Made by a program: the position numbers and the translations under genes. The notes below the pieces were generated by a model, which had not been told where the DNA came from, ran no database searches, and was given only the letters and a program-made list of their open reading frames with translations. Shown here piece by piece: positions 8,481 through 49,511 of a DNA stretch of 64,000 nucleotides (position 1 is its first letter; each line of letters opens with the position of its first letter). The stretch lies in the IMG/VR virus record IMGVR_UViG_3300045988_100041; one strand, 5' to 3'. This stretch comes from a virus.

Positions 8481-10188
8481 GTCTTTTCCGGAGATTTTCG
8501 GTCGATTTCGGAAACTGGCGGCAGAGAATCAGGGAATGCCGATGGCAAGCATTGTATCGGCGTTTGCAGGCATCAACTCCGGGCGCTACGGCATGGCGAA
8601 CCCGTATATCCAGAACCGCCGCGTAAAGCAGATTTCTTCGCTTCCCGCAAACTACACAAAAGACAAGGTTGCGGAAATGCTGACAAGCCCGTATGAGAAT
8701 GAAAAGCCGCTTCGTCAGGTGGGGCATATTCTGGAATATACGGCGTATCCGCTGTTTCATATCCGCAAGACCTATCAGAATCTTTTGACCTACCACAGCT
8801 ATATCGCGCCGAACTTTGTATCGGAAAGCGATATGAAGAAGGACGATTTCTGGCGGGAATACAAGTTGGCAGAAAAGCTCCGGCAGGAGTTTTGCCCGAA
8901 GGAAACGGCACATCAGATCGTTGGGCAGGTCGGAACGGAAGGGAAGGTATTTTACTATCCCAGATACAGCGTAGACAAGAGCCACAACAAGGTTGACTAC
9001 GCATTTTTGCAGCAGCTGCCGTCTGACTGGACGAAGATTACGGGATTCAACAATATTTCGAAGTACACGGTTGCCTTTAACATGATGTACTTCTTACAGC
9101 CGGGATGTGTGCCTGAACAGTTTGGAGATCTGTTTACACCGTATCTCTATGACTTCGCGCAGGTTGTGGAAGCGCCCAAAAAGGCGGACAAGTCGCTTGT
9201 TTTTGCGCAGAAGCGCATTGACATCGGAAAGTTCCGCGCGATTCAGCAGGGACGAGACTTGGTTGGAACGCCGGATGTCTACTATCAGAACGGAAGATGG
9301 TATTATTGGGTGTATCTGCCGCCTGAAAAGGTGTTTACCTTTGAGGCAGACGATGCAAGCAGGACGGCAATCTCGCCGTTTGCAGGACTTTTCCTGAACA
9401 TGATACAGCTGGCGCAGATGGAGCAGATCCAGTTGGAGTTGATTCAAAATCCCCTCGTCAGCCTTCTGCATGGAGAAATCCCGTACAGAGATGAAAAGGT
9501 CGCAACGGACGATGACCAATACAGACTCAGCAACGCAGGGCGGCTTCTTTTTGAAACGCTATGGTATCAGATGCTGTTTGAAAACAACACAAGCGGTATC
9601 GGGCTGTATCTTGCGCCGGTTGAAAACATGAAGCTGGAAAGTCTGTCCGAAGCGCCGTCTGCCATGGATATTGTGAAGCAGGGCTATTCCGATACGATGT
9701 CGCAGGCCGGCATGGGCGCTATTATCCCACTGGGAGACGATACAAGAGCCGCAACGGCACAGATCTCCTTGCAGATTGAAAGCAAGTTCATGGAATGCGT
9801 TTACCGCGACTATGAGCGGATGATGAACGCGATTCTCAAGAGCCTCAACCTCAAGTATGACTTCCGGTTCCGGATGTTTGGAAATCTTGCAGAGGACGAA
9901 AAGACGATGGAACGCGCGATGAAGGGCATGGAGCACGGGATTCTGCCGGATACCTTCTTATACAATGCGCTGCTGGACCGGTCGGTGCTGGATGACATCT
10001 GCTTGTCTGACGCAGTATTTGCAAGCGGCGTGATGGATAAGCGGCTTCCGCTCGTCACATCGTACAGCGCAAAGCAGGACACTTCCAATCTTCCACCGCA
10101 AAAGCAGGGCAGACCCAAAGGGGACGGAGCGGTAACGACAGACGGCTCGGAGGGCGTGATTGACCAATATGGAGCGACAAATGACTGA
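8440..10188 (+). CDS. Portal protein
   Basis: 582 aa. ATG 8440 follows AAGGAGG. Size and position between terminase and scaffold/capsid genes. Confidence 0.7.
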   Translation: MAIPKEELNKVQYESFPEIFGRFRKLAAENQGMPMASIVSAFAGINSGRYGMANPYIQNRRVKQISSLPANYTKDKVAEMLTSPYENEKPLRQVGHILEYTAYPLFHIRKTYQNLLTYHSYIAPNFVSESDMKKDDFWREYKLAEKLRQEFCPKETAHQIVGQVGTEGKVFYYPRYSVDKSHNKVDYAFLQQLPSDWTKITGFNNISKYTVAFNMMYFLQPGCVPEQFGDLFTPYLYDFAQVVEAPKKADKSLVFAQKRIDIGKFRAIQQGRDLVGTPDVYYQNGRWYYWVYLPPEKVFTFEADDASRTAISPFAGLFLNMIQLAQMEQIQLELIQNPLVSLLHGEIPYRDEKVATDDDQYRLSNAGRLLFETLWYQMLFENNTSGIGLYLAPVENMKLESLSEAPSAMDIVKQGYSDTMSQAGMGAIIPLGDDTRAATAQISLQIESKFMECVYRDYERMMNAILKSLNLKYDFRFRMFGNLAEDEKTMERAMKGMEHGILPDTFLYNALLDRSVLDDICLSDAVFASGVMDKRLPLVTSYSAKQDTSNLPPQKQGRPKGDGAVTTDGSEGVIDQYGATND

Positions 10189-38365: not shown

Positions 38366-38394
38366 ATTCTACCGGGAATTTTCAGTTGTCCCGC
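38366..38394 (-). promoter_or_regulatory. GCGGGACA-N15-TAGAAT promoter-like box (copy a)
   Basis: - strand reads GCGGGACAACTGAAAATTCCCGGTAGAAT. It overlaps the 3' end of the desulfurase gene and lies ~45 nt upstream of the 38319 start. Confidence 0.45.
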
Positions 38395-39491
38395 TTTGCG
38401 GAAAGATTTTTCAGTTCTTTCACACACTGCGCAGTGATTTTCACTGCTTCATCGATCTTGGCAAAGTCTTTTTCCTGTTCGGCTCCGAATCTTGGCTGAT
38501 ATTCGTCCATCGGAAGCCGGAGCGTATAGTCAAAAGAAAACCGGACGGCGCTTCGGGCGCGTTCTTCCTGGTATCCAGCGGCAAGCAGGACTCTCGACGG
38601 CTTATTGTCTCCGCTGGAACACGCCGCACCGCCAGACACCATGACATTCTCAGAAGAAAGTCTCAGGACAAGGGCGGTATTTTCAACGCCTGGGAACGAG
38701 ATATTTGCGATATAGGGAGACTGCGAAGATTTGTTTCCTTCGTAGACGCTGCCGTTTAATTTTGCGTCCGGGATCTCGTTCATCATACCATCAATGAGCC
38801 GGTCGTGCAAGCGGCCTGCCATTTCTGCAAACTCCGCAAGATGCTGTGTCCGGAACCAGAGCGCCTGAGAAAACGCCGCAGCGAGTGCGACAGAAGGGGT
38901 TGCGAAATGTTCCAGTTCATAGATGCTTTCCGGATCTTTTGCAATCAGAACACCGATGCCGACGGGCGCGCCGAATTTATGGCCGCCGCCTGCAATGTAG
39001 TCGATTCCGTCCGACTTGTAATTGAGCTGGAATTTTCCCATGGCTGCGGTGCAGTCGGAAAAGCATACATTCCACGCGCCTGTGTTTTCTAGGTCGTAAA
39101 TGAATCCGGTTTCGTTGCAGGTGTGGATATGCGCAAGAGCGGCTTCTTTTTTGCGGGACCTGCTGTGAATCTTACCGTAATCGGGAAGTCTTTTATAGAC
39201 TGCGTCGTGTTCGTAGGAAGAACAAAGCGCGTCTCGATAATCGTTCAGGAGGCGAAGCGCTGCAAGGCGGCAGCTTTCGGTGGCGCTGGATGTGAAGATG
39301 ACCTGCTCCGGTTCGCAGTTTATGCACGCTGCGACGATTTTTTTCTGTTCCTGCAAAAAGGCGTTGTTTCTTGTCCCGCTTGCGTGGATGCTGTTTGGAT
39401 TCCCGACTTCACCACGGCATACCCTTGCAAATTCGCGCATGGATGAGGAAAGCACCGGCGATGTGGCTGCGTAGTCGAGGTAGATCAGCAT
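38382..39491 (-). CDS. Class V aminotransferase / cysteine desulfurase (NifS/IscS-like)
   Basis: 369 aa. IYLDYAATSP N-terminus, PLP-lysine motif GGHKFGAPVGIG, active-site loop SGGAACSSG, and His in SSYEHDAV. Confidence 0.85.
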   Translation of the reverse strand: MLIYLDYAATSPVLSSSMREFARVCRGEVGNPNSIHASGTRNNAFLQEQKKIVAACINCEPEQVIFTSSATESCRLAALRLLNDYRDALCSSYEHDAVYKRLPDYGKIHSRSRKKEAALAHIHTCNETGFIYDLENTGAWNVCFSDCTAAMGKFQLNYKSDGIDYIAGGGHKFGAPVGIGVLIAKDPESIYELEHFATPSVALAAAFSQALWFRTQHLAEFAEMAGRLHDRLIDGMMNEIPDAKLNGSVYEGNKSSQSPYIANISFPGVENTALVLRLSSENVMVSGGAACSSGDNKPSRVLLAAGYQEERARSAVRFSFDYTLRLPMDEYQPRFGAEQEKDFAKIDEAVKITAQCVKELKNLSAKRDN

Positions 39492-40000
39492 GGCGCGGTC
39501 CCTCCGAAGTTTGGAACGAAGGAAGAAAGAAGCTGATGATAGAACTTATTTTGCGCCTGCAGCTCAATGCACCGCTCTTTCAGCGAGGATAGTTCTGCGT
39601 CCGGTTCTTTGGAAACGGGAAGCACGCCGGAAGGCCCCGGATTTTTGGGTTCATTTGCGCCGCTCAGACCGATGGACACCAGAAGGGCGCTGTCTACGAG
39701 CTGCATTTCATGCTGCTCCAAGGTCGAGATATAGCTTCCAAGGCGTTCTTTGCTGACGGTATAGATGTTTTCACACAGGACGGTATTTTTCACGCCTTTC
39801 ATTGTGATTTCCACGTGCGTCGGAAGGGGCTTTTTCTTCTCTGCGGTCGTTAAGTAGCAGATCTCTATGTTCGGAGAAAATAGGTTATTTTTCTCGTTTG
39901 AAACGACAACGGCAGGTCTTGACTTGCGAATTTCACTTCCAAGCCCGTCTTTCCAGTTATCTACCCAGAAAATATCGCCGCGATGGATGCTACGTTCCAT
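39485..40000 (-). CDS. MazF/PemK-family endoribonuclease-like protein with ~60-aa C-terminal extension
   Basis: RGDIFWVD...RKSRPAVVVSN...CYLTT...THVEI...VLCENIYTVSKERL matches the PemK fold pattern. An extra coiled-coil tail (ELSSLKERCIELQAQNKFYHQLL) follows. The stop overlaps the desulfurase start (ATGCTGA). Confidence 0.7.
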   Translation of the reverse strand: MERSIHRGDIFWVDNWKDGLGSEIRKSRPAVVVSNEKNNLFSPNIEICYLTTAEKKKPLPTHVEITMKGVKNTVLCENIYTVSKERLGSYISTLEQHEMQLVDSALLVSIGLSGANEPKNPGPSGVLPVSKEPDAELSSLKERCIELQAQNKFYHQLLSSFVPNFGGTAPC

Positions 40001-40101
40001 TTCTTTCGTCCTTTCTTTCACATTTTTCTATGTACGGCGGCACGTCCGCACGATATGCCGCCTATTCAGTTTAATTGCGTTTGAACTGAATATTGAGGGT
40101 G

Positions 40102-40401: not shown

Positions 40402-40477
40402 TGGTGAGCCGTCCCGGAGTCGAACCGAGATTTTACCAGTTATGAGCTGGTCGCTCTAGCCTTTGAGATAACGGCCC
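40402..40477 (-). tRNA. tRNA-Met/Ile2 (anticodon CAT), CCA encoded
   Basis: Reverse complement folds as a cloverleaf: GGGCCGT / ACGGCTC acceptor, ACCAG-CTCATAA-CTGGT anticodon arm, CTCGG-TTCGACT-CCGGG T arm, ACCA end. No initiator features. Confidence 0.85.
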
Positions 40478-40853
40478 ATCGATTCCGGCTTGACGTACCG
40501 GCCGCGAGGTCTTGTGCACAGACCAACGGCAAATCAGGTGATTGCACACCGTCTCCACCTTGTTATCCTCATGATGGACGATCTGAGTGGGGAGTTCCCA
40601 TTTCGCTTGTTTACTCCCAAACTTCGCTATCGGCTATATCAACCCGACGACACCGCTGCCAGATGCGGAGGTTTCATTCCATCGGGGGAAGTCATCCGAT
40701 GGCGGGCATGGGCGGCTTGGCAGAATCGAACTGCCTCGGGTCAGTTGCTCGTCGCTTCCCTTTACCAAATGCCGCGTGTTGCCACACTGACGCAGTGGCC
40801 GCGGAGGGTTGGCTTTATTTATAACGCGCCACGACTCCCACAAGAGGGCGCTT
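40478..40853 (-). ncRNA. Unassigned structured non-coding segment (candidate large ncRNA)
   Basis: 376 nt with no credible ORF, co-oriented with the flanking tRNAs. Contains a T-loop-like hairpin GGCAG-TTCGATT-CTGCC (40719-40735) and helices GGGAGT/ACTCCC (40590-40618) and TGTGCA/TGCACA (40513-40548). Confidence 0.3.
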
Positions 40854-41012
40854 TGGCGGATGCGGCGGGGATTTGAACCCCGCATGGTGCAGACAGTATG
40901 CGACGAGCTTTATTCCCGTCCGAGGTGGCTGCTTGAACCCCAATAGGTTTGAGTGTGCCGCGCTTTCCTGCACCGCATACCCTTGCTACCTTTTCCATTC
41001 GGCCACGCATCC
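40854..41012 (-). ncRNA. 159-nt tRNA-like RNA: acceptor/T-arm minihelix with a ~120-nt non-tRNA insert, GCCA 3' end
   Basis: - strand: GGATGCG (41006-41012) pairs with CGCATCC (40858-40864). T arm GCGGGG-TTCAAAT-CCCCGC, discriminator G, CCA encoded. The interior has competing helices GTATGCG/CGCATAC and GGTGCAG/CTGCACC, and I found no anticodon arm. Confidence 0.45.
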
Positions 41013-41021
41013 ATATTTTGC

Positions 41022-41345
41022 TCAGATTTTTGCGGTACAGCGGTATTTGCAGGTTTTCCAGTCCGCGAGGCTGCACGACTCGAAGATGCAGGGTGATCCG
41101 GCGTACTCCGGCTTGTCGCAGAATTCGTGGATCAGCTCCGGATACAGGGCGTTCATTGCAAAAAGGTTTCTTGCCGAATCCGGCCCGACAAACATCGGCT
41201 TTCCTTTCGGTGCGTAGTCACGGATCTGATAGGGGATTTCGTCCCGTTCGCTGTAGAAATGGACCGCGACCGGCGTCACGTCCTTCTCTACGACGACGTA
41301 GACATTTTTCGTGCCGTTGGTGAGATAGCGAATGTCCAAGCTCAT
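41022..41345 (-). CDS. Hypothetical 107-aa protein embedded in the RNA island (C-terminal Cys cluster)
   Basis: Strong RBS AAGGAGGAAAACAAATG. MSLDIRYLTNGTKNVYVVVEKD...CDKPEYAGSPCIFESCSLADWKTCKYRC. Confidence 0.6.
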   Translation of the reverse strand: MSLDIRYLTNGTKNVYVVVEKDVTPVAVHFYSERDEIPYQIRDYAPKGKPMFVGPDSARNLFAMNALYPELIHEFCDKPEYAGSPCIFESCSLADWKTCKYRCTAKI

Positions 41346-41713
41346 TTGTTTTCCTCCTTGCTTTGTTTTCTTGGTTTTGTACAGCCTGCCTCCCGGCTCC
41401 GGAGCCGCCGTTACTCGACGCCTAGACGCTCCCGTGCAGAAGTTGGTCTGCGTCGCCACGCCGGTTTTTCTTCCATCCTTTACGCCTCACAGCGGACTGT
41501 CGGAAGGCCGGGAGGGTAAGCCACGGAACTTTTCAGCCCTGCGCCGGTGCATCGGTCGCATCCGTTTTTTCACACATTAAGCCGGAGCCAGCTAATTAAA
41601 TTCGCAATCTGTCGTACTTGCACTACCTACAGATTGAGCGGATGGCCGGATATATCGTTTCACCAAGCCTTTGGAACCTCAAAACTTTCCCTGAGTCCGC
41701 CGCAATACCCATG
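41346..41713 (-). other. 368-nt GC-rich leader/non-coding segment between tRNA-Gly and the 41345 CDS
   Basis: No credible ORF; many local helices (e.g. GGCTCCGGAGCC at ~41394-41405). Function unknown. Confidence 0.3.
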
Positions 41714-41787
41714 TGGAGTGCGTGAGGAGAATCGAACTCCCACCATCAGATTGGAAGTCTGATGTTCTGCCATTAAACTACACGCAC
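41714..41787 (-). tRNA. tRNA-Gly (anticodon TCC), copy 1
   Basis: GTGCGTG/CACGCAC acceptor, TCAGA-CTTCCAA-TCTGA anticodon arm, GGGAG-TTCGATT-CTCCT T arm, U73, CCA encoded. Confidence 0.85.
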
Positions 41788-41794
41788 ATAAATG

Positions 41795-41916
41795 GCTCCC
41801 CGTTTTACTCCGGTGCGGGAGCGTTCTTCCCGAAAACCCATAGCCAGGCTTCCCAGCTTGGAGCACCGGAATCTCTGAAATGTTCCGGTGAGCGCCTTCG
41901 CTTACATGGGTGACGC
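41795..41916. ncRNA. Repeated structured element X, copy 1 (122 nt)
   Basis: ~84% identical to 42126..42239. Shared helices carry compensatory changes; details are in the findings. Strand unresolved. Confidence 0.5.
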
Positions 41917-41927
41917 TTTAAAGAGTA

Positions 41928-42001
41928 TGGAGCGGCATACGGGAGTTGAACCCGCGTTTTCAGATTGGAAGTCTGACGTGCTTCCGCTGCACCAATGCCG
42001 C
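41928..42001 (-). tRNA. tRNA-Gly (anticodon TCC), copy 2
   Basis: GCGGCAT/ATGCCGC acceptor, anticodon arm identical to copy 1, GCGGG-TTCAACT-CCCGT T arm, U73, CCA encoded. Only ~60% identical to copy 1 outside the anticodon arm. Confidence 0.85.
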
Positions 42002-42400: not shown

Positions 42401-43501
42401 CTATGCGATCTCCGACCGGCTTTTTTTGACGGTAGGCTGCGGCCGGAGGTTTGAGAAAAAATCATCGCCCTGCATTTCAAGATACCGCTTGTTGCGGTCT
42501 GCCTGACGGTCTTTTTCTTCCTGCACAAGAAGCGTCTGGCGGCGTTTCCTGCGGCTGGTGAGTTTGCCGGAATAGATCTGCGTGACTTCTGCCGATTCAT
42601 GCCCGAGCTTTGCTTGCAGTTCTTCCAGAGGCATGCCGCCGTTGAGATCGAGCCGCGCGCCGACGTGCCGCAGGTCGTGGGACCGGACATTATCTACACC
42701 TGTCACGCGCTTTACATGGCGGCGGACAAGCTCTGTCAGCCATTGACGGCTGCCGGCGTGCCAGGATTCTGCGTTGAAGTTTCTGGACGTTCTGACTTTT
42801 TCTGCGCAGGTTCCAAAGAGCGGGTCATCGTCTTTTGCATAGGAAGGGCGGATGCCGCTTTTAAGATAGAGCCTTACGGCGGTCTGCGCGATGGGCGGGA
42901 AGTCTACAACGCGGTATTTGTTGCCCTTGCCGTGCTCTACGGTCAGCTCTTCGTTTTCCCAGTCCAAGTCGGCAGGCGTGAGGGCGAGAAGTTCGCAGTT
43001 TCTGATCTCTGTGGACAGAAACAGGACGGCGATTGCATAGTTTCGCTCCCATTCCGGAACGCCGCTTGATTTTGGGGAGTTGTTCCGCCACAAAAGTGCC
43101 GCCTGTTCGTCGGTCAGAATCTGGTCATAGGGTCTTGCATCTTCCTGACGGGTGTCCGGCATGAGGAATTTGGAGACGGGGTTTTTGTCATAAAAGCGGT
43201 AGTCTCCAAGCTGGGGAGACGAGGCGTATTCATAAAATCCGGAAAGAACTTTCAGATACTGCTTGACGGTGGACGGTTTTCTGCCGGTTGCAAGCAGCAT
43301 ATCACGCCACGCCTGAATGTCTGTGAAGGATACCTCGTGGTTCCAGTTGTCCCGATCTTCAATCATAAAGAGGCTGAACAGTTTTATCACGTTGTCGATA
43401 TTTTCAACCGTATTTTCTGAGCGCCCGATGGCGATCATGTTTGAACGGTAGGAACGGTAGGCTTCCATGAACTTCTTTTCTTCCTTGATGGGCGGTGCCA
43501 T
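42401..43501 (-). CDS. int: Tyrosine recombinase / phage integrase
   Basis: 366 aa. N-terminal SAM-like core-binding region, and a C-terminal catalytic pattern ...R...HDLRHVGA...LGHESAEVTQIYSG (R-H-R-H/Y). Confidence 0.9.
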   Translation of the reverse strand: MAPPIKEEKKFMEAYRSYRSNMIAIGRSENTVENIDNVIKLFSLFMIEDRDNWNHEVSFTDIQAWRDMLLATGRKPSTVKQYLKVLSGFYEYASSPQLGDYRFYDKNPVSKFLMPDTRQEDARPYDQILTDEQAALLWRNNSPKSSGVPEWERNYAIAVLFLSTEIRNCELLALTPADLDWENEELTVEHGKGNKYRVVDFPPIAQTAVRLYLKSGIRPSYAKDDDPLFGTCAEKVRTSRNFNAESWHAGSRQWLTELVRRHVKRVTGVDNVRSHDLRHVGARLDLNGGMPLEELQAKLGHESAEVTQIYSGKLTSRRKRRQTLLVQEEKDRQADRNKRYLEMQGDDFFSNLRPQPTVKKSRSEIA

Positions 43502-44581: not shown

Positions 44582-45379
44582 TCAGGCAATTTTTGCTGCC
44601 GCGAGGCTCGCGGCTTTACGCTGGACGATGCTTGTGAAGATCTCGCAGAGTTTTACATCCTGAGAAATGACGGCGAGTTTGCTGACTGCCTGACACTCGG
44701 CATATTTTGCGCCGCCCTGCTTCATGCGTTTGCGCAGGTTGTTCAGGCGCGTGTCAATGTTGCAGTGAGCGGATTCTTCCAGTTCTTTGTAGAGCTGACC
44801 GGTGAAGGTCTGGAAGTTCAGCTCGTATTCCATGCAGAGCTGACGGATTTTATTTCGCATGGCATCCTGCCAGCTGTTCCGGTCTACGGATGGGGCGGCC
44901 AGTTCGGAGAATGCGGTCTGCATGGCACTGTGGATCTGTTTCTGCCCAGATTCCAAAGCGGTCAGGCGGCGTTCCTGTTCTACCATGATTTGCGCTTGCG
45001 CAAGAAGCTGCTCCGCTGGGGTTGATGCTCGCGCCTGTTCCTTGGCGCGGAAGTATCCCTTGACAAGTTCACGCTGCACTCTCCACGCCAGATCGTCCGT
45101 GAAAGACTTTACCAGCATGAGGTATCCGGATTCTGTGATGAGCGTCACGTCTTCCGTAGCCTTTGCCGGAATGTCGTTCCAGTGCGTCCGAAATTCGGAC
45201 GCGCAAATTTTGAAGTAATCTTCTCCGTCAACGAACCGCTCCCGGTTGTCGTTGAAGCGCTTTCTTGCCGTTCCGTCAGGTCTGCCATGCACGGCGTCAA
45301 TGTCCTTGAACGTCACGACACGCTGTCCTTGATATTCCTTCACGGAAATGTCTGTATTGTTGATGGTCTGCAATTTCAT
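44582..45379 (-). CDS. ORF6N-domain antirepressor-like protein
   Basis: EYQGQRVVTFKDIDAVHGRPDGTARKRFNDNRERFVDGEDYFKI matches the ORF6N/KilA-N-type pattern. AGGAGG RBS before ATG 45379. Confidence 0.7.
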   Translation of the reverse strand: MKLQTINNTDISVKEYQGQRVVTFKDIDAVHGRPDGTARKRFNDNRERFVDGEDYFKICASEFRTHWNDIPAKATEDVTLITESGYLMLVKSFTDDLAWRVQRELVKGYFRAKEQARASTPAEQLLAQAQIMVEQERRLTALESGQKQIHSAMQTAFSELAAPSVDRNSWQDAMRNKIRQLCMEYELNFQTFTGQLYKELEESAHCNIDTRLNNLRKRMKQGGAKYAECQAVSKLAVISQDVKLCEIFTSIVQRKAASLAAAKIA

Positions 45380-45432
45380 TTCAAAAATTCCTCCTGTCAC
45401 TTAAAAAAGGGTATAAAAATCCCACGCATGAC

Positions 45433-45462
45433 TTGACATCCGCGCGGCGCTTCGTCTATAAT
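45433..45462 (+). promoter_or_regulatory. Consensus sigma-A promoter firing rightward, antisense to the RHH gene
   Basis: TTGACA (45433-45438), 18 nt, then TATAAT (45457-45462). Confidence 0.55.
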
Positions 45463-45469
45463 TGGGTAG

Positions 45470-45552
45470 ACAAAGCCCTTGCGGTTTTGGCACAAGAGCA
45501 ATCGTAGTGGGTCGCCAAACTTAGCTACGGTTGCTCATTTCGTTATTTATCT
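45470..45552 (+). ncRNA. Candidate ~80-nt antisense/small RNA
   Basis: Predicted start ~7 nt after the TATAAT. A 12-bp hairpin GAGCAATCGTAG (45496-45507) / CTACGGTTGCTC (45525-45536) is followed by ATTTCGTTATTTATCT. It overlaps the 3' end of 45543..45701 on the other strand. Confidence 0.3.
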
Positions 45553-45701
45553 CTTGTTTGGTTGAGATATTCGAGGACTGCAAAGCGAATATAGCCGCTT
45601 ACTGTCATTCCGCGCCGCTTCGCTTCTTCCTTCATTTTCTCAATCGCATCCGGCGGGAAAAACACGGTTATTCGCTCTGTGTTCTCTTTCGGTCGTGCCA
45701 T
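45543..45701 (-). CDS. Ribbon-helix-helix (CopG/Arc-like) DNA-binding protein
   Basis: 52 aa from ATG 45701 (AAGGAGGG RBS). ERITVFFPPDAIEKMKEEAKRRGMTVSGYIRFAVLEYL shows a beta-strand / helix / helix pattern. Confidence 0.65.
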   Translation of the reverse strand: MARPKENTERITVFFPPDAIEKMKEEAKRRGMTVSGYIRFAVLEYLNQTRDK

Positions 45702-45724
45702 ATTCTGCCCTCCTTTCTGGTATA

Positions 45725-45753
45725 ATAATAGCACCATTTTATTATGCTGTCAA
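45725..45753 (-). promoter_or_regulatory. Sigma-A type promoter of the RHH gene
   Basis: - strand reads TTGACA (45748-45753), 17 nt, then TATTAT (45725-45730). Confidence 0.5.
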
Positions 45754-45797
45754 TATCAATTTAAGCAACTTATAGAAATTTCTGATGGGCATCTTTT

Positions 45798-45826
45798 GAT
45801 CTACACATTTTTTCGGTTTGTCCCGC
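45798..45826 (-). promoter_or_regulatory. GCGGGACA-N15-TAGATC promoter-like box (copy d)
   Basis: - strand reads GCGGGACAAACCGAAAAAATGTGTAGATC, upstream of the RHH gene's canonical promoter. Confidence 0.4.
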
Positions 45827-45931
45827 TGGGGGGATATTCGCCCCCGCTTTTTTACAATATCACGTTTGGAAAGCGAAACATAGCGCAAAGAGGCGAAAGC
45901 GTTTCATAATTGATCGTTGGAGGTATTATTT

Positions 45932-47281
45932 ATGCGTGAATCGGAAAGCATTATTATGCAGATTGACATTGTTGATTCCCTGATTCATTTTATTAAGTCA
46001 AAATACGGAGTTAGAACGAAAGCTATCTTAATGTACGAGCGAACCGAACAAATACCTTTGGAACTACTTGAACCATATGTTGACCTTCTGAATAAGAATG
46101 AGATGAAATTCATAGAAATTTTAAGCCGAACTGATGATATGGTTATTATCCGGTATGTTGATAACGCACTCTTGCAAAAAAAACCGTTTTATTTCGCCAG
46201 AAACGACCTGTTCAATAAGTATAAAGAGGAAAATGATTATTTCCAGCTTTCAATAAAAAACAACGTTTGGGGAAACATGTGGGAAAACGAAAAATCCATT
46301 CCATATGTCAGGAAACTAACGTCTGGCTATTCCTATATTTGCTTTGAAAAGAAGTATTCAACCATTGTTGCGTATAATGTATCTCAACAATTTCACTTTA
46401 CCCCGGAAATTATTGACGTGGATGACATCCCAGAAGTTTGTTATATGGTTGAAGAAATTCCTTCCTCACCAATGCCTAGATACTGCAAAGATAACAATGC
46501 GCGTCTCGGAATTTGGTCATATATTACTCAAAATCTTATGATCCCCGCTGTTCAAATAGATGACATCAAAGGGGAAATCAAATTACAGCACAGATCAGCG
46601 GTTTCGGATGAGATCATACAATACAGACAAGGGATGCGTGTCGATATTAAACATGTTGCGCGCAGTTCATGGGAAGCAAACATTTCAAGAATATTTCAAA
46701 AACTTGGCGTTCCGTATGAGTACGAACGGGAAGCATTCAGCTTTGATGATTTCATCTATGTACCAGATTTTTTTCTCCCAAACAATATAATCGTAGAAGT
46801 GAAAGGATTCTGGGATAATAATAGCAGGAGAAAGGTTGTTGCTCTTAAAAAGAATCGACCGGAATATACTATTCTTCCAATTGATTCTGATATGTACGAA
46901 TCTTTGAGGCTGAAATATTCGAGTCAGATTTCGCAATGGGAAGAAAATGTTTCTGTCAGTTGCAGAGATTATGAAGTTAGCATTGTCGGTATGAAATTCT
47001 GTGCAAGCAAAGAGACGCTGCAATCATTAACTGTTGGAGACAATCTGCTTTTAGAGCGAGAACCAAAAAATAGATTTGATAAGAATGCCATTCTAGTAAA
47101 AACAATGAGCGGCGCACCGATAGGACATTTTTGTGCTGATTGGGCTGCTGTATTCGCTCCGAAAATGGACATTGGAATGACTTACCATGCGAAGATCTCA
47201 GACATTCAGCGAAGTGCAATTTGCGCGACTGTGAGAAGAAGCAATTTCGATGCTGAAATTCTATATGATTTTTTCACCTGA
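45932..47281 (+). CDS. Three-part protein: unknown N-domain, PD-(D/E)xK nuclease-like core, C-terminal HIRAN domain
   Basis: 449 aa from ATG 45932 (GGAGG RBS). SSWEANISRIF...YVPDFFLPNNIIVEVKGF gives an E...PD...ExK nuclease signature. VSIVGMKF...GDNLLLEREPKNRFDKNAILV...IGH is a HIRAN signature. The gene is visibly AT-rich relative to its flanks. Confidence 0.8.
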   Translation: MRESESIIMQIDIVDSLIHFIKSKYGVRTKAILMYERTEQIPLELLEPYVDLLNKNEMKFIEILSRTDDMVIIRYVDNALLQKKPFYFARNDLFNKYKEENDYFQLSIKNNVWGNMWENEKSIPYVRKLTSGYSYICFEKKYSTIVAYNVSQQFHFTPEIIDVDDIPEVCYMVEEIPSSPMPRYCKDNNARLGIWSYITQNLMIPAVQIDDIKGEIKLQHRSAVSDEIIQYRQGMRVDIKHVARSSWEANISRIFQKLGVPYEYEREAFSFDDFIYVPDFFLPNNIIVEVKGFWDNNSRRKVVALKKNRPEYTILPIDSDMYESLRLKYSSQISQWEENVSVSCRDYEVSIVGMKFCASKETLQSLTVGDNLLLEREPKNRFDKNAILVKTMSGAPIGHFCADWAAVFAPKMDIGMTYHAKISDIQRSAICATVRRSNFDAEILYDFFT

Positions 47282-47297
47282 AATTCTCCTTCTCGTA

Positions 47298-47332
47298 GGA
47301 AAACCGCTCCGGAGGGAGCGGTTTTCCTTTTT
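47298..47332. terminator. Strong bidirectional terminator after the HIRAN gene
   Basis: GGAAAACCGCTCC (47298-47310), loop GGAG, GGAGCGGTTTTCC (47315-47327), then TTTTT. Perfect 13-bp stem. Confidence 0.75.
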
Positions 47333-47351
47333 CGTGGGGTCACGAAAATGG

Positions 47352-47579
47352 TCATATTTTTATGACGGCGGATTTATAGAGCGTTGCTTTGCCGTCGAGG
47401 GTTGCCGCTTCGCGGTAGATGGACATGACTTCTTTTCCGTAGGTTTCGATGGGGGAAATATCATCCGGTTCACAGTATGAGACAAGACCGACCAGATCTC
47501 CACTGTTCAGTGGCTGACCGGAAGTGGCGGAGAAAAATTCTCCGCCTTTGATTTCGTATTCACCGGGTTTATAAAACAT
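47352..47579 (-). CDS. Hypothetical small protein
   Basis: 75 aa, AAGGAGG RBS. Has its own sigma-A-like promoter: - strand TTGAAA (47636-47641), 16 nt, then TATACT (47614-47619). Confidence 0.5.
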   Translation of the reverse strand: MFYKPGEYEIKGGEFFSATSGQPLNSGDLVGLVSYCEPDDISPIETYGKEVMSIYREAATLDGKATLYKSAVIKI

Positions 47580-47637: not shown

Positions 47638-48222
47638 TCAAGCTACGGTGTGAAGCTGATAGCCGTGGTTTTTGACTTGCGCGGTGGTGTAGTAGATGCG
47701 GTCAGACCACGATACCCAGACAGGGCGCTTGCGGCCTGCGATGGTCGCTTTTTGCAGCAGGATTTCTTCGCCGCGCCTGTTCACCTTAACGGTCGCATTG
47801 AGTGGGAGATTTTCCAGACTGTTCGGGTCTTTCCTAGCTGCTGCCTTTTTCGTGGCGTTTTCCAGGCAAGCCTTGCGCCATTCGACGGCGTATTCATATT
47901 CTGTCGTGGACAGCAGATTCAGGATGGATACCGGGCAGTCGCGCTGGAATGGTCCCATGGATTCGTCCATGTCTTTATAGCCGAAGTTGCAGTATTCCTT
48001 GCTGTCGAGCCGTGTCAGGCAGACGCCGGCGAAAACATACGGTTTTTCGTTCGGTCTGGTTCTTTCGCAGGCTCCATACCATGTGGAGCCGACCATAGAG
48101 GATTTCAGGACGCGGCAGGAATCTCCGGTCTGTTCGTTGTTCCAGGTATAGAGCGCGTCGCACTCTGCTTTGCGGTCAATCTTTCCGTTCCATGCGTCTA
48201 CATGATAAAATGTCCATCCCAT
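47638..48222 (-). CDS. Conserved-looking hypothetical protein (MGWTFYH... N-terminus)
   Basis: 194-aa ORF tightly coupled to the upstream gene. I did not recognise a motif with confidence. Confidence 0.6.
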   Translation of the reverse strand: MGWTFYHVDAWNGKIDRKAECDALYTWNNEQTGDSCRVLKSSMVGSTWYGACERTRPNEKPYVFAGVCLTRLDSKEYCNFGYKDMDESMGPFQRDCPVSILNLLSTTEYEYAVEWRKACLENATKKAAARKDPNSLENLPLNATVKVNRRGEEILLQKATIAGRKRPVWVSWSDRIYYTTAQVKNHGYQLHTVA

Positions 48223-48240
48223 GATATGTACCTCCCTCGA

Positions 48241-48462
48241 TTATTTGAACAGCTGGCGGACGTTGCCGCGACTTACGTACCATGTCCAGTCCTCTTTATT
48301 TGTCGTGGGACGAAATGCGTTTTTGCCGGTCTTTTCGTGATACCACTGTTTGCAGATCGCGCAGGCTTCTTTCGCGGTATTTGCTTCGATAACGACTTCG
48401 TTTAAGTATTCCGTCCGGTTCTCCTTCGTGAAGAAGTAGACTGTGTAGTTTTTCAGCGCCAT
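48241..48462 (-). CDS. Hypothetical small protein
   Basis: 73 aa; CAGGAGGTAC RBS. Preceded by promoter-like box e. Confidence 0.5.
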   Translation of the reverse strand: MALKNYTVYFFTKENRTEYLNEVVIEANTAKEACAICKQWYHEKTGKNAFRPTTNKEDWTWYVSRGNVRQLFK

Positions 48463-48506
48463 GTTATGTACCTCCTGAACTGTTTGGGCGTTCTGTTCTA
48501 TATTTG

Positions 48507-48536
48507 ATTCTACCGGAAGCGGGGGTTTTGTCCCGC
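48507..48536 (-). promoter_or_regulatory. GCGGGACA-N16-TAGAAT promoter-like box (copy e)
   Basis: - strand reads GCGGGACAAAACCCCCGCTTCCGGTAGAAT. The -35-like box lies in a hairpin that, read on the + strand, is followed by TTTTTT. Confidence 0.5.
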
Positions 48537-48551
48537 CTCCGGCTTTTTTAT

Positions 48552-48737
48552 TTACTCATTTGCGGCTGCCGGATAGTGCGCTTTGATCTCGGCGTAGGAC
48601 GCTTTCAGGCAGAAACCGTGCGGCGTCTGGTAGGTGATGTTTTTGGGCCCGGTGGAAAGCACGACGCATTTTTCATCGTACCGGACTTTTACGAAATCGC
48701 CTTTTTTGACGTTCTCCCGGCTGTACGGTACGCCGCC
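48552..48737 (-). other. Start-less 61-codon reading frame, in frame with and directly after the TAG stop of 48738..49511
   Basis: After TAG (48738-48740) the same frame stays open for GGVPYSRENVKKGDFVKVRYDEKCVVLSTGPKNITYQTPHGFCLKASYAEIKAHYPAAANE up to TAA 48552-48554. It has no ATG or RBS of its own. Confidence 0.35.
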
Positions 48738-49511
48738 CTACGCGTCGATGCAGGACTGATAATAGCAAGCCCTTGAGATTTCGGATTCGATGCGCTCGGC
48801 GCTGTTTTCCATCCATTGCAGAACTTCGTCGCGTGTGATTTCTGTTCCGTCGTAGCGTTTGAGCGTTTCGCCTGCGTCGAGTTTGGAAAGATATTTGCGA
48901 TAGCTGTCCATGTTTTTATTCTGGGCGCGGATGTTCTTTTCTGCGTCCTGCACTCTGCGATAACAGAAATCCTTGCTCGGTTTTTTCGCGGTATCTGCTG
49001 TTCTGCGGGCGGCTTCGGCACGTTCGGCGTAGTATTCCGATTTTTTGAACTCGTCCATGCCGCGATCAAAGGCGGCAAACATTTTTTCGCGCTGGCGCGT
49101 GAAGGCACGCCCGGAGGATGTGTTGATGTTGGGCTGGGTGAAGAACGCAATATCGCCGCGCCTGGCGTTGATGGGCTTTTGCAGCTGTTCGCCGCGCTGC
49201 TCTGCTGCATCGGCGCGCGCGTCCATGCGCTCGGCTCGTTCTTCCGCGCGGGCTGCTTTTCGCTCCATTTTTTCCTCGAAGGAAAGAAGTTCGCCCGTCT
49301 TTCCCTGATTCTCCGCGCCAAGGCTCTTTGCAACCTGTTCTGCACGCCAGAGGTTCGGGATTTTTGCGCGGCTGACCCAACAGCCGCCGTATCTTGAAAA
49401 GAGGAAGTTGCTTTTGATGGTGGATTTTTGATCGTCAGAAAGCGCCTGGTATTCGGATTTATCAAAATGAAGCTCCAGCTTCTCGGTTTCTCGGTTGATG
49501 ATGTAATACAT
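48738..49511 (-). CDS. DUF3560-like protein (as annotated up to the TAG)
   Basis: 257 aa. The pattern EEKMERKAARAEERAERMDARADAAEQRG...FDRGMDEFKKSEYYAERAEAARRTA is the charged-helix plus YY..RA pattern I associate with DUF3560 (from memory). Confidence 0.6.
   Translation of the reverse strand: MYYIINRETEKLELHFDKSEYQALSDDQKSTIKSNFLFSRYGGCWVSRAKIPNLWRAEQVAKSLGAENQGKTGELLSFEEKMERKAARAEERAERMDARADAAEQRGEQLQKPINARRGDIAFFTQPNINTSSGRAFTRQREKMFAAFDRGMDEFKKSEYYAERAEAARRTADTAKKPSKDFCYRRVQDAEKNIRAQNKNMDSYRKYLSKLDAGETLKRYDGTEITRDEVLQWMENSAERIESEISRACYYQSCIDA

Follow-up and report, generated by a model that had tools for sequence, protein, structure and literature searches.

In a 64,000-nucleotide stretch of viral DNA (IMG/VR record IMGVR_UViG_3300045988_100041; hereafter the window), the gene at 45932..47281 on the plus strand is swappable cargo in a slot that related phages fill with defense and exclusion genes. 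The gene starts with the ATG at 45932 and encodes 449 amino acids plus a stop codon, in which a T7 endonuclease I-type nuclease core is joined to a HIRAN domain; we refer to it as nuclease-HIRAN. It is a moron, located between an early leftward operon and an operon formed by an Arc-like ribbon-helix-helix (RHH) gene and an antirepressor gene. The family to which the virus belongs consists of temperate phages whose hosts are Clostridia, probably Oscillospiraceae. The variable slot, with its SNIPE, Ltp, membrane-protein, or nuclease-HIRAN cargo, is our main new result. We lean, with modest confidence, toward a role in defense or exclusion, by which the protein would protect the lysogen, and hence the prophage, from other phages or mobile DNA.

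A variable cargo slot in sister phages

We used the neighboring 194-aa protein as bait and retrieved 44 viral loci; since the sister phages were found through this neighbor, the sample is unbiased with respect to the cargo. The same flanks recur in 23 of the 44 loci (L011 to L033), with the genes for a 75-aa protein, the 194-aa protein, and a DUF3560 protein on one side and the RHH and antirepressor genes on the other. The cargo between these common flanks varies. Nuclease-HIRAN is present in 9 of the 23 sister loci and missing from the remaining 14. A protein with DUF4041 and T5orf172 domains (500 to 507 aa) occurs in eight, in one of them truncated; it matches the PADLOC model PD-Lambda-1 with an E value of 1.9e-150 and has the same position and orientation as nuclease-HIRAN, 84 to 94 bp from the RHH gene. 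PD-lambda-1 is SNIPE, a nuclease with an experimentally proven defense role; it cuts the DNA of a phage while this is being injected (PMC13190303). Five sister loci carry a Zn-ribbon membrane protein together with a Cu_amine_oxidN1 protein. An Ltp lipoprotein (PF07553, E = 8e-31), of the same family as the TP-J34 superinfection-exclusion protein, stands alone in one locus and accompanies the nuclease in four. In one sister locus (L033, 6050-7162), an IS200/IS605-type TnpB (OrfB_IS605, with a Cas12f-like TNB domain) is inserted into the slot.

DNA homology breaks place the approximate limits of the swappable cassette at 45757..47421. Homology to two SNIPE-carrying loci, L012 and L020, ends at 45756; it resumes at about 47422 in L012 and is detected again only from ~47800 in L020. 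The right limit is soft because the adjoining 75-aa gene is merely 51 to 58% identical.

Slot occupancy thus varies between conserved flanks, which makes nuclease-HIRAN dispensable cargo and no core replication factor, and the slot is a hotspot for defense and exclusion genes. An earlier note, made from the sequence of this DNA alone, had suggested a part in defense or superinfection exclusion. That idea gains circumstantial support from a slot that otherwise holds SNIPE/PD-lambda-1 or Ltp; the role itself we infer.

The same distribution bears on two other explanations. First, the protein could be an optional enzyme of phage DNA metabolism that, like T7 gp3, resolves or debranches the intermediates of the phage's own replication and recombination before packaging or degrades host DNA, with HIRAN guiding it to forks or D-loops. 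Its membership in the T7 endonuclease I family and its intact active site are compatible with such a function, as is the view that the replication apparatus of tailed phages gave rise to HIRAN (PMC3417536). Moreover, no other resolvase was recognized in the scanned part of the window, though a PHROG scan of ten genes at 55 to 64 kb for resolvase or replication genes was uninformative, most of them being without annotation. We nevertheless find this explanation unlikely. Fourteen of the 23 sister phages do without the gene and carry defense or exclusion genes instead; the gene runs against the array and has the integrase/antirepressor region for a neighbor instead of a replication module; in all phage backgrounds, it stands out by a foreign composition; and the architecture is found in none of 50,697 deposited phage genomes, in which only the nuclease part matches T7-like endonucleases.

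Second, a free-standing nuclease gene that shows presence/absence polymorphism among sister phages, and whose position coincides exactly with a mosaic boundary between them, might be a selfish, homing-endonuclease-like element. It would cut gene-less sister phages that infect the same cell and spread as they repair the break by recombination (marker exclusion), without the host gaining anything. Phage nuclease genes are known at such exchange boundaries, and the T5orf172/GIY-YIG domain of the slot-mate is typical of them (PMC10448857). Yet T7 endonuclease I and HIRAN read DNA structure, and no sequence-reading domain was found in the protein. The slot also holds cargo other than nucleases (Ltp and the membrane proteins), family members exist outside phages, and the slot-mate nuclease is a proven host-protecting defense (PMC13190303). 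A selfish element of this kind is therefore, in our judgment, very unlikely.

Nuclease and HIRAN domains

The earlier note had divided the protein into an N-terminal domain, a nuclease, and a HIRAN domain, and this three-part architecture is borne out by Pfam and by alignments; the motifs quoted there were all located in the protein, as E248, P278-D279, E289-x-K291, and EREPKNRFDKNAILV. The PD-(D/E)xK core (aa 241-320; 46652..46891, plus strand) matches Phage_endo_I (PF05367) over profile positions 13 to 96 of 149, with an E value of 1.6e-11 and 44.5 bits against a gathering cutoff of 29.1. A PDB sequence search retrieved T7 endonuclease I (1m0d) with an E value of 7.6e-10, or 6e-12 for the family profile. 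The predicted catalytic residues E248, D279, E289, and K291 (codons 46673-46675, 46766-46768, 46796-46798, and 46802-46804) align on E20, D55, E65, and K67 of the T7 enzyme, and this tetrad is invariant or at least 90% conserved among 43 sequences.

The HIRAN domain (aa 347-417; 46970..47182, plus strand) was assigned by Pfam (PF08797, E = 7e-12, 45.5 bits against a gathering cutoff of 24.7) and by Foldseek. Aligning LEREPKNRFDKNAILV with LQRDPNNPYDKNAIKV puts F382 on HLTF Y93 and D383 on D94, and N380 and D383 are invariant in the 43 sequences. The codons of this putative pocket lie at 47069-47071 (N380), 47075-47077 (F382), and 47078-47080 (D383). In HLTF, Y93 stacks against the bound dinucleotide (PMC4666394). 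Judging by eye from the VGMKF / VGLRYY motif, F356 is the likely equivalent of HLTF Y72.

An AlphaFold2 model of the full-length protein, built as a monomer on the 43-sequence alignment, has a pLDDT of 92.9 and a pTM of 0.84. In a Foldseek search of the PDB with this model, the HLTF HIRAN domain and Lactobacillus lp_0118 rank first (E ~1e-5; TM to target, 0.65 to 0.85), and T7 endonuclease I ranks after them. Alignments and model together show that the protein holds a predicted junction-nuclease active site and a predicted 3'-end-binding pocket. Active sites of the T7 endonuclease I type cut branched DNA, and HIRAN binds a free single-stranded 3'-OH end.

The binding of single-stranded 3' ends by HIRAN (PMC4666394) raises the additional idea of a guard against prophage loss, which would break down single-stranded DNA that arrives by transformation or conjugation with a free 3' end and thereby block chromosomal curing. 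A HIRAN protein, thaL, is encoded in pneumococcal prophage lysogeny modules, as described in work on how prophages and transformation come into conflict; however, the passage describing thaL gives it no function. As this type of nuclease prefers branched duplex DNA and the Oscillospiraceae hosts may not be competent, we regard such a guard as highly improbable.

An orphan N-terminal domain and a rare family

The first 235 residues (45932..46636, plus strand) are an orphan domain, without a family match in Pfam, PHROGs, NCBIfam, or PADLOC. Modeled alone with AlphaFold2, as the earlier note had proposed, this part (pLDDT 86) is predicted to consist of two ferredoxin-like alpha/beta modules, each beta-alpha-beta-beta-alpha-beta-like, and a small beta-hairpin unit. 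Foldseek comparison with the PDB returned weak matches to tandem ferredoxin-like, ACT, BMC, and KH folds (TM, 0.2 to 0.3; rmsd, >13 Å). Since the likeness is one of topology only, we do not read it as homology. A structure search of BFVD gave no viral structural relative.

A profile of the N-domain had eight hits among 1.84 billion cluster representatives. Six are members of the endonuclease I-HIRAN family or an endonuclease I fragment, and two are stretches of ~100 aa from the N-domain alone. No combination of the N-domain with any other effector domain was seen among these representatives, as judged by a Pfam check of three hits. The N-domain also diverges faster than the rest of the protein, with 17 to 46% identity to full-length homologs against 54 to 69% for the nuclease and 50 to 73% for HIRAN.

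An N-domain this divergent has the look of a module for sensing or autoinhibition, which brings to mind an abortive-infection toxin whose nuclease would be held inactive until an infection cue released it to shred host and phage DNA and kill the cell. Tandem ACT-like or ferredoxin-like folds are typical ligand-binding regulators, though the structural match is weak, and nucleases of the T7 endonuclease I type are toxic if freely expressed. On the other side, the slot-mate SNIPE acts directly at DNA entry, as does Ltp, and nothing separates such a toxin from direct defense. We hold it to be distinctly unlikely.

A word-indexed search of 5.8 billion clusters yielded 43 relatives, every one of them with the endonuclease I-HIRAN pair, and a profile of the C-terminal half added ~50 more, for a family of ~100 protein clusters. 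Where a source names them at all, the name says no more than "HIRAN domain-containing protein" or else "Phage endonuclease I." Throughout, the endonuclease I-HIRAN core is constant and the N terminus is variable, taking the form of a ferredoxin-like domain, topoisomerase-type Zn ribbons, or short forms. The family is rare: 185,579 species genomes (one genome each) contain 17 loci, all in Bacillota. Two of these encode full-length relatives, in metagenome-assembled genomes of uncultured Clostridia and Oscillospiraceae, beside an ORF6N antirepressor and an integrase.

One protein found in the same slot, P0004 (547 aa; L059, 1471-3114), is chimeric: a stretch of ~100 residues at its start shares homology with the coiled-coil leader that forms the N terminus of the SNIPE-like slot-mate (E = 2e-12), and an entire nuclease-HIRAN protein follows. 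This suggests either recombination between both cargo types or an N-terminal targeting module that they have in common. The SNIPE/PD-lambda-1 homologs of these gut Clostridia phages (among them L012, 9771-11273, and L020, 9170-10693) have a long coiled-coil N terminus without an evident transmembrane segment; of the copy in L022, a truncated one, 215 aa are left.

Composition and strand

The 449-aa product is called identically on four further public contigs. Gene calls on near-identical contigs agree with the earlier description of a lone plus-strand gene in a leftward array: from the lysis module to past the DUF3560 gene, nuclease-HIRAN is the sole called gene on the opposite strand. AT skew turns positive solely across it, in agreement with a plus-strand gene amid a minus-strand array.

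That the gene forms an AT-rich island is likewise confirmed by windowed GC. Its GC content is 37.4% (36.2% at third codon positions) against a mean of 52.0% for the 64-kb window, which corresponds to a z score of -3.95 relative to all 1350-bp windows and makes the gene the strongest compositional outlier; the lowest value elsewhere is 44.6%. The earlier note took this as a sign of recent acquisition, and we reject that reading of the GC content. The GC fraction of family members is 0.33 to 0.43 in all backgrounds checked (flanks, 0.41 to 0.57), including lineages only 38 to 45% identical to one another, and the other cargo of the slot has values of 0.42 to 0.44 against 0.50 in the flanks. In phages with a GC fraction of 0.50 to 0.57, members as distant as 38 to 45% identity still have values of 0.37 to 0.43. 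In low-GC Bacilli, the gene is near its host in GC, equal or up to ~0.08 lower. Because the entire family is AT-rich, and all slot occupants are too, this composition is no sign of a recent event; low GC is instead a mark of mobile cargo, whose origin perhaps lies in low-GC Bacillota. A megablast search of 37 to 56 kb against deposited phages gave only trivial matches.

Genomic context of distant homologs

Homologs of 38% identity occupy other temperate phage backbones, again as a lone opposite-strand gene beside antirepressors and an integrase, and a form with a short N terminus is the lone opposite-strand gene of an unrelated phage. Another homolog is found close to the end of a prophage, in the company of serine recombinases, an IS3 element, and a DUF2326 (PDC-M68B-like) gene, and that of Paenibacillus macquariensis sits amid three integrases. 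PADLOC, applied to the neighbors of distant homologs, returned one candidate match only, PDC-M68B. No homolog was located in a recognizable replication module among the loci examined. The consistent placement in replication modules by which the earlier note would have recognized an ordinary phage replication or repair factor is thus not what we observe; the homologs have integrase and antirepressor genes as neighbors or lie in islands rich in integrases, and the gene is missing from 14 of the 23 sister phages.

Transcription signals and neighboring genes

A GGAGGT ribosome-binding site (45920-45925) lies 7 nt ahead of the ATG. Past the stop codon, a 14-bp stem (47297-47328; 8 GC pairs, 4-nt loop) followed by a T-run forms an intrinsic terminator at 47297..47338 on the plus strand, as the earlier note had claimed. 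The promoter of the cargo gene may include a candidate extended -10 element (TGGTATAAT; 45718..45726, plus strand), read from the sequence, which overlaps the -10 region of the divergent RHH promoter and was missed by a consensus scan because of its weak -35. The equivalent hexamer is kept as TACAAT and CATAAT in siblings with other cargo and as TATAAT (9939-9944) in L005. Among the marks of an autonomous cargo unit, then, the gene has a terminator, the opposite strand, and a deviant GC content, and its promoter is only this candidate. The 5' leader contains a GC-rich hairpin with a T-run (45827..45852, plus strand), a terminator-like site that is missing in L005, whose intergenic gap is 84 bp. 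An Rfam scan of the leader for a riboswitch or attenuator matched no family, and the predicted folding of the leader is on a par with that of shuffled sequence (z = -0.02).

The RHH gene (45543..45701, minus strand; 52 aa; RHH_5/NikA-like in Pfam, Arc-like repressor in PHROG) lies outside the cassette and has a promoter, TTGACA-17-TATTAT (45753-45725), that agrees with the consensus at 11 of 12 positions. It does flank the nuclease gene, as the earlier note had stated. It is, however, retained whatever the cargo, and it is therefore no partner of the nuclease; we ruled it out as the nuclease's own regulator or antitoxin. It belongs to a conserved RHH-antirepressor operon, with an antirepressor always next to it whose type varies (pRha, AntA/ANT, ORF6N, or P22_AR_N), and represents the "arc" of an arc-ant-like operon, a layout that resembles P22 immI. 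Given the overlapping -10 regions, RHH may co-regulate the cargo gene.

Several features of the neighborhood deserve mention in their own right. The antirepressor behind RHH (44582-45400, minus strand; also L001, L002, L005, and L007) is swapped among ORF6N, pRha, AntA/ANT, and P22_AR_N types in otherwise near-identical phages, so that a second mosaic point adjoins the cargo slot. The gap between the RHH and antirepressor genes contains a candidate small antisense RNA (45433-45556, plus strand), preceded by a perfect promoter, TTGACA-18-TATAAT, at 45433-45462. The putative RNA of ~90 nt (45468-45556) would form two hairpins with a U-run after the second (minimum free energy, -29.6; z = -3.86) and matches no Rfam family. 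Its sequence is near 100% identical in sister phages, compared with ~80% for the adjoining RHH reading frame, and in its layout it is reminiscent of sar RNA from the arc-ant region of P22 immI.

The early leftward operon (47638-49511, minus strand, and the arrays of L005 and L007) encodes DUF3560, DUF6900, and DUF6927 proteins and an HNH gene, with LPD25 in relatives. The DUF3560, DUF6900, DUF6927, and LPD25 domains are typical of conjugative-element or polyvalent proteins, and the operon may be an anti-defense or establishment module. Farther away in the leftward array, at 38382-40021 (minus strand), an Aminotran_5-family protein gene overlaps a PemK-type toxin gene and is followed by that of an HU-like DNA-binding protein; this trio recurs in remoter relatives that carry a nuclease-HIRAN gene (L001, 2649-4636). 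Three tRNA genes (Met-CAT and two Gly-TCC; 40402-42001, minus strand) also belong to this array and lie between the lysis-proximal genes and the integrase (42401-43501).

A possible role in defense

Several lines of evidence argue for defense. SNIPE and Ltp are among the alternative occupants of the slot, and the lone opposite-strand layout next to antirepressor and integrase genes recurs both at 38% identity and in an unrelated phage. Conservation extends to the catalytic tetrad and to the HIRAN pocket. A constant core is combined with varied N termini, one of which is the SNIPE-like coiled-coil leader of P0004, and Shedu is built likewise. The gene has its own terminator and a low GC content, as all slot cargo does. 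The pneumococcal prophage lysogeny modules that contain thaL point in the same direction.

If this is so, the gene would be expressed in the lysogen, and its product would be a cytoplasmic, structure-specific DNA endonuclease tethered to HIRAN. HIRAN would dock on free 3'-OH ends adjoining duplex or branched DNA, and the nuclease would cut there. Likely targets would be injected linear genomes at their ends, D-loops, and the exposed forks of recombination-dependent or rolling-circle replication, and the outcome would be the destruction of injected linear genomes or exposed phage replication intermediates, to the benefit of the lysogen. The fast-evolving N-domain could serve as a regulatory or sensor module that restrains or triggers a toxic-prone nuclease and so keeps host DNA safe. 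A more specific version makes HIRAN an innate-immune sensor of free 3' ends that docks a junction cutter on injected genomes or phage replication intermediates, with the N-domain as a new sensor or autoinhibitory module; we offer it tentatively, as one possibility that falls well short of probable. It supposes that a circular, replisome-protected chromosome offers no such ends.

Some considerations weigh against defense. The case is one of guilt by association, and hotspots carry non-defense morons too. Host forks and the induced prophage's own replication would have to escape cutting. T7 endonuclease I canonically serves the DNA metabolism of its own phage. One homolog sits among housekeeping genes, the consensus scan found no strong sigma-70 promoter for the gene, PADLOC has no model for the protein beyond the HIRAN part of PDC-M03, and HIRAN has been proposed to derive from the tailed-phage replication apparatus (PMC3417536).

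HIRAN in eukaryotes has been studied in depth as a domain that senses 3' ends where forks have stalled, but prokaryotic HIRAN is without a demonstrated function. In the compact, confidently modeled product of a single gene, it is predicted to be wired straight to a junction-cutting nuclease, and the locus thus frames the question of whether 3'-end recognition can drive antiphage immunity. A defense role would add a new nuclease-based means of telling foreign DNA from self. If HIRAN is the sensor, the distinction would be based on structure and would work without sequence, modification, or membrane anchoring. In addition, the slot is a defense hotspot in phages of poorly studied gut Clostridia that can be mined for further cargo.

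Comparison with known systems

The pairing of HIRAN with a restriction-fold nuclease is not itself new; it was reportedly noted computationally in 2006 by Iyer, Babu, and Aravind and is said to be mentioned in the Pfam text. These authors trace HIRAN back to the replication of phages (PMC3417536). In the literature, we found no characterization of a T7 endonuclease I-HIRAN fusion. As the earlier note had anticipated, the protein cannot be placed in a named system: the sole PADLOC match is to PDC-M03B and is confined to HIRAN, and PHROGs and NCBIfam gave no named system. We view it as a candidate single-gene, prophage-borne nuclease defense.

PDC-M03, a PADLOC candidate system, is a cluster of a HipA kinase and a HIRAN protein, in which the latter has been proposed as the antitoxin. 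The HIRAN domain studied here matches PDC-M03B (E = 3e-10) over model positions 130 to 218 only. Membership was ruled out, as the match is confined to HIRAN and a HipA-like gene is absent among the neighbors (RHH, antirepressor, 75-aa, and 194-aa genes).

T7 endonuclease I (gp3; PF05367; PDB 1M0D and 2PFJ) is of the same nuclease family, and the alignment spans its residues ~14 to 96; no more than about two thirds of the profile is covered. The T7 enzyme forms a homodimer by domain swapping, has composite active sites, and cleaves four-way junctions. Whereas gp3 is a stand-alone enzyme of 149 aa encoded in the replication module of lytic phages, the core described here is the middle of a 449-aa fusion and is dispensable cargo in the lysogeny region of temperate phages. 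The HIRAN domains of HLTF/Rad5 and of Lactobacillus lp_0118 (PF08797; PDB 4S0N, 4XZF, and 3K2Y) have the same fold and conserve the NxFDKNAI motif, but the eukaryotic domain guides a fork-reversing SWI/SNF translocase, and here HIRAN is fused to a nuclease. Prokaryotic HIRAN domains have been described as uncharacterized (PMC11090510).

SNIPE/PD-lambda-1 is a nuclease defense encoded by a single gene and takes the identical slot and orientation in sister phages; neither of its domains, DUF4041 and GIY-YIG (T5orf172), is found in our protein by Pfam or PADLOC. Escherichia coli SNIPE avoids self-cutting by means of a transmembrane anchor in the membrane (PMC13190303). No transmembrane segment is evident in our protein by inspection of the AlphaFold2 model or the sequence, no topology predictor having been run. 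Shedu (SduA) is a single-protein PD-(D/E)xK defense nuclease for which DNA-end sensing has been reported. It belongs to another nuclease subfamily, and our protein has no DUF4263 or SduA match at E values up to 1 in Pfam or PADLOC and carries its putative end-binding module, HIRAN, at the C terminus. Still, Shedu combines a conserved core with highly diverse N-terminal sensor domains, as our protein does with its core and N terminus, and it is the nearest working analogue.

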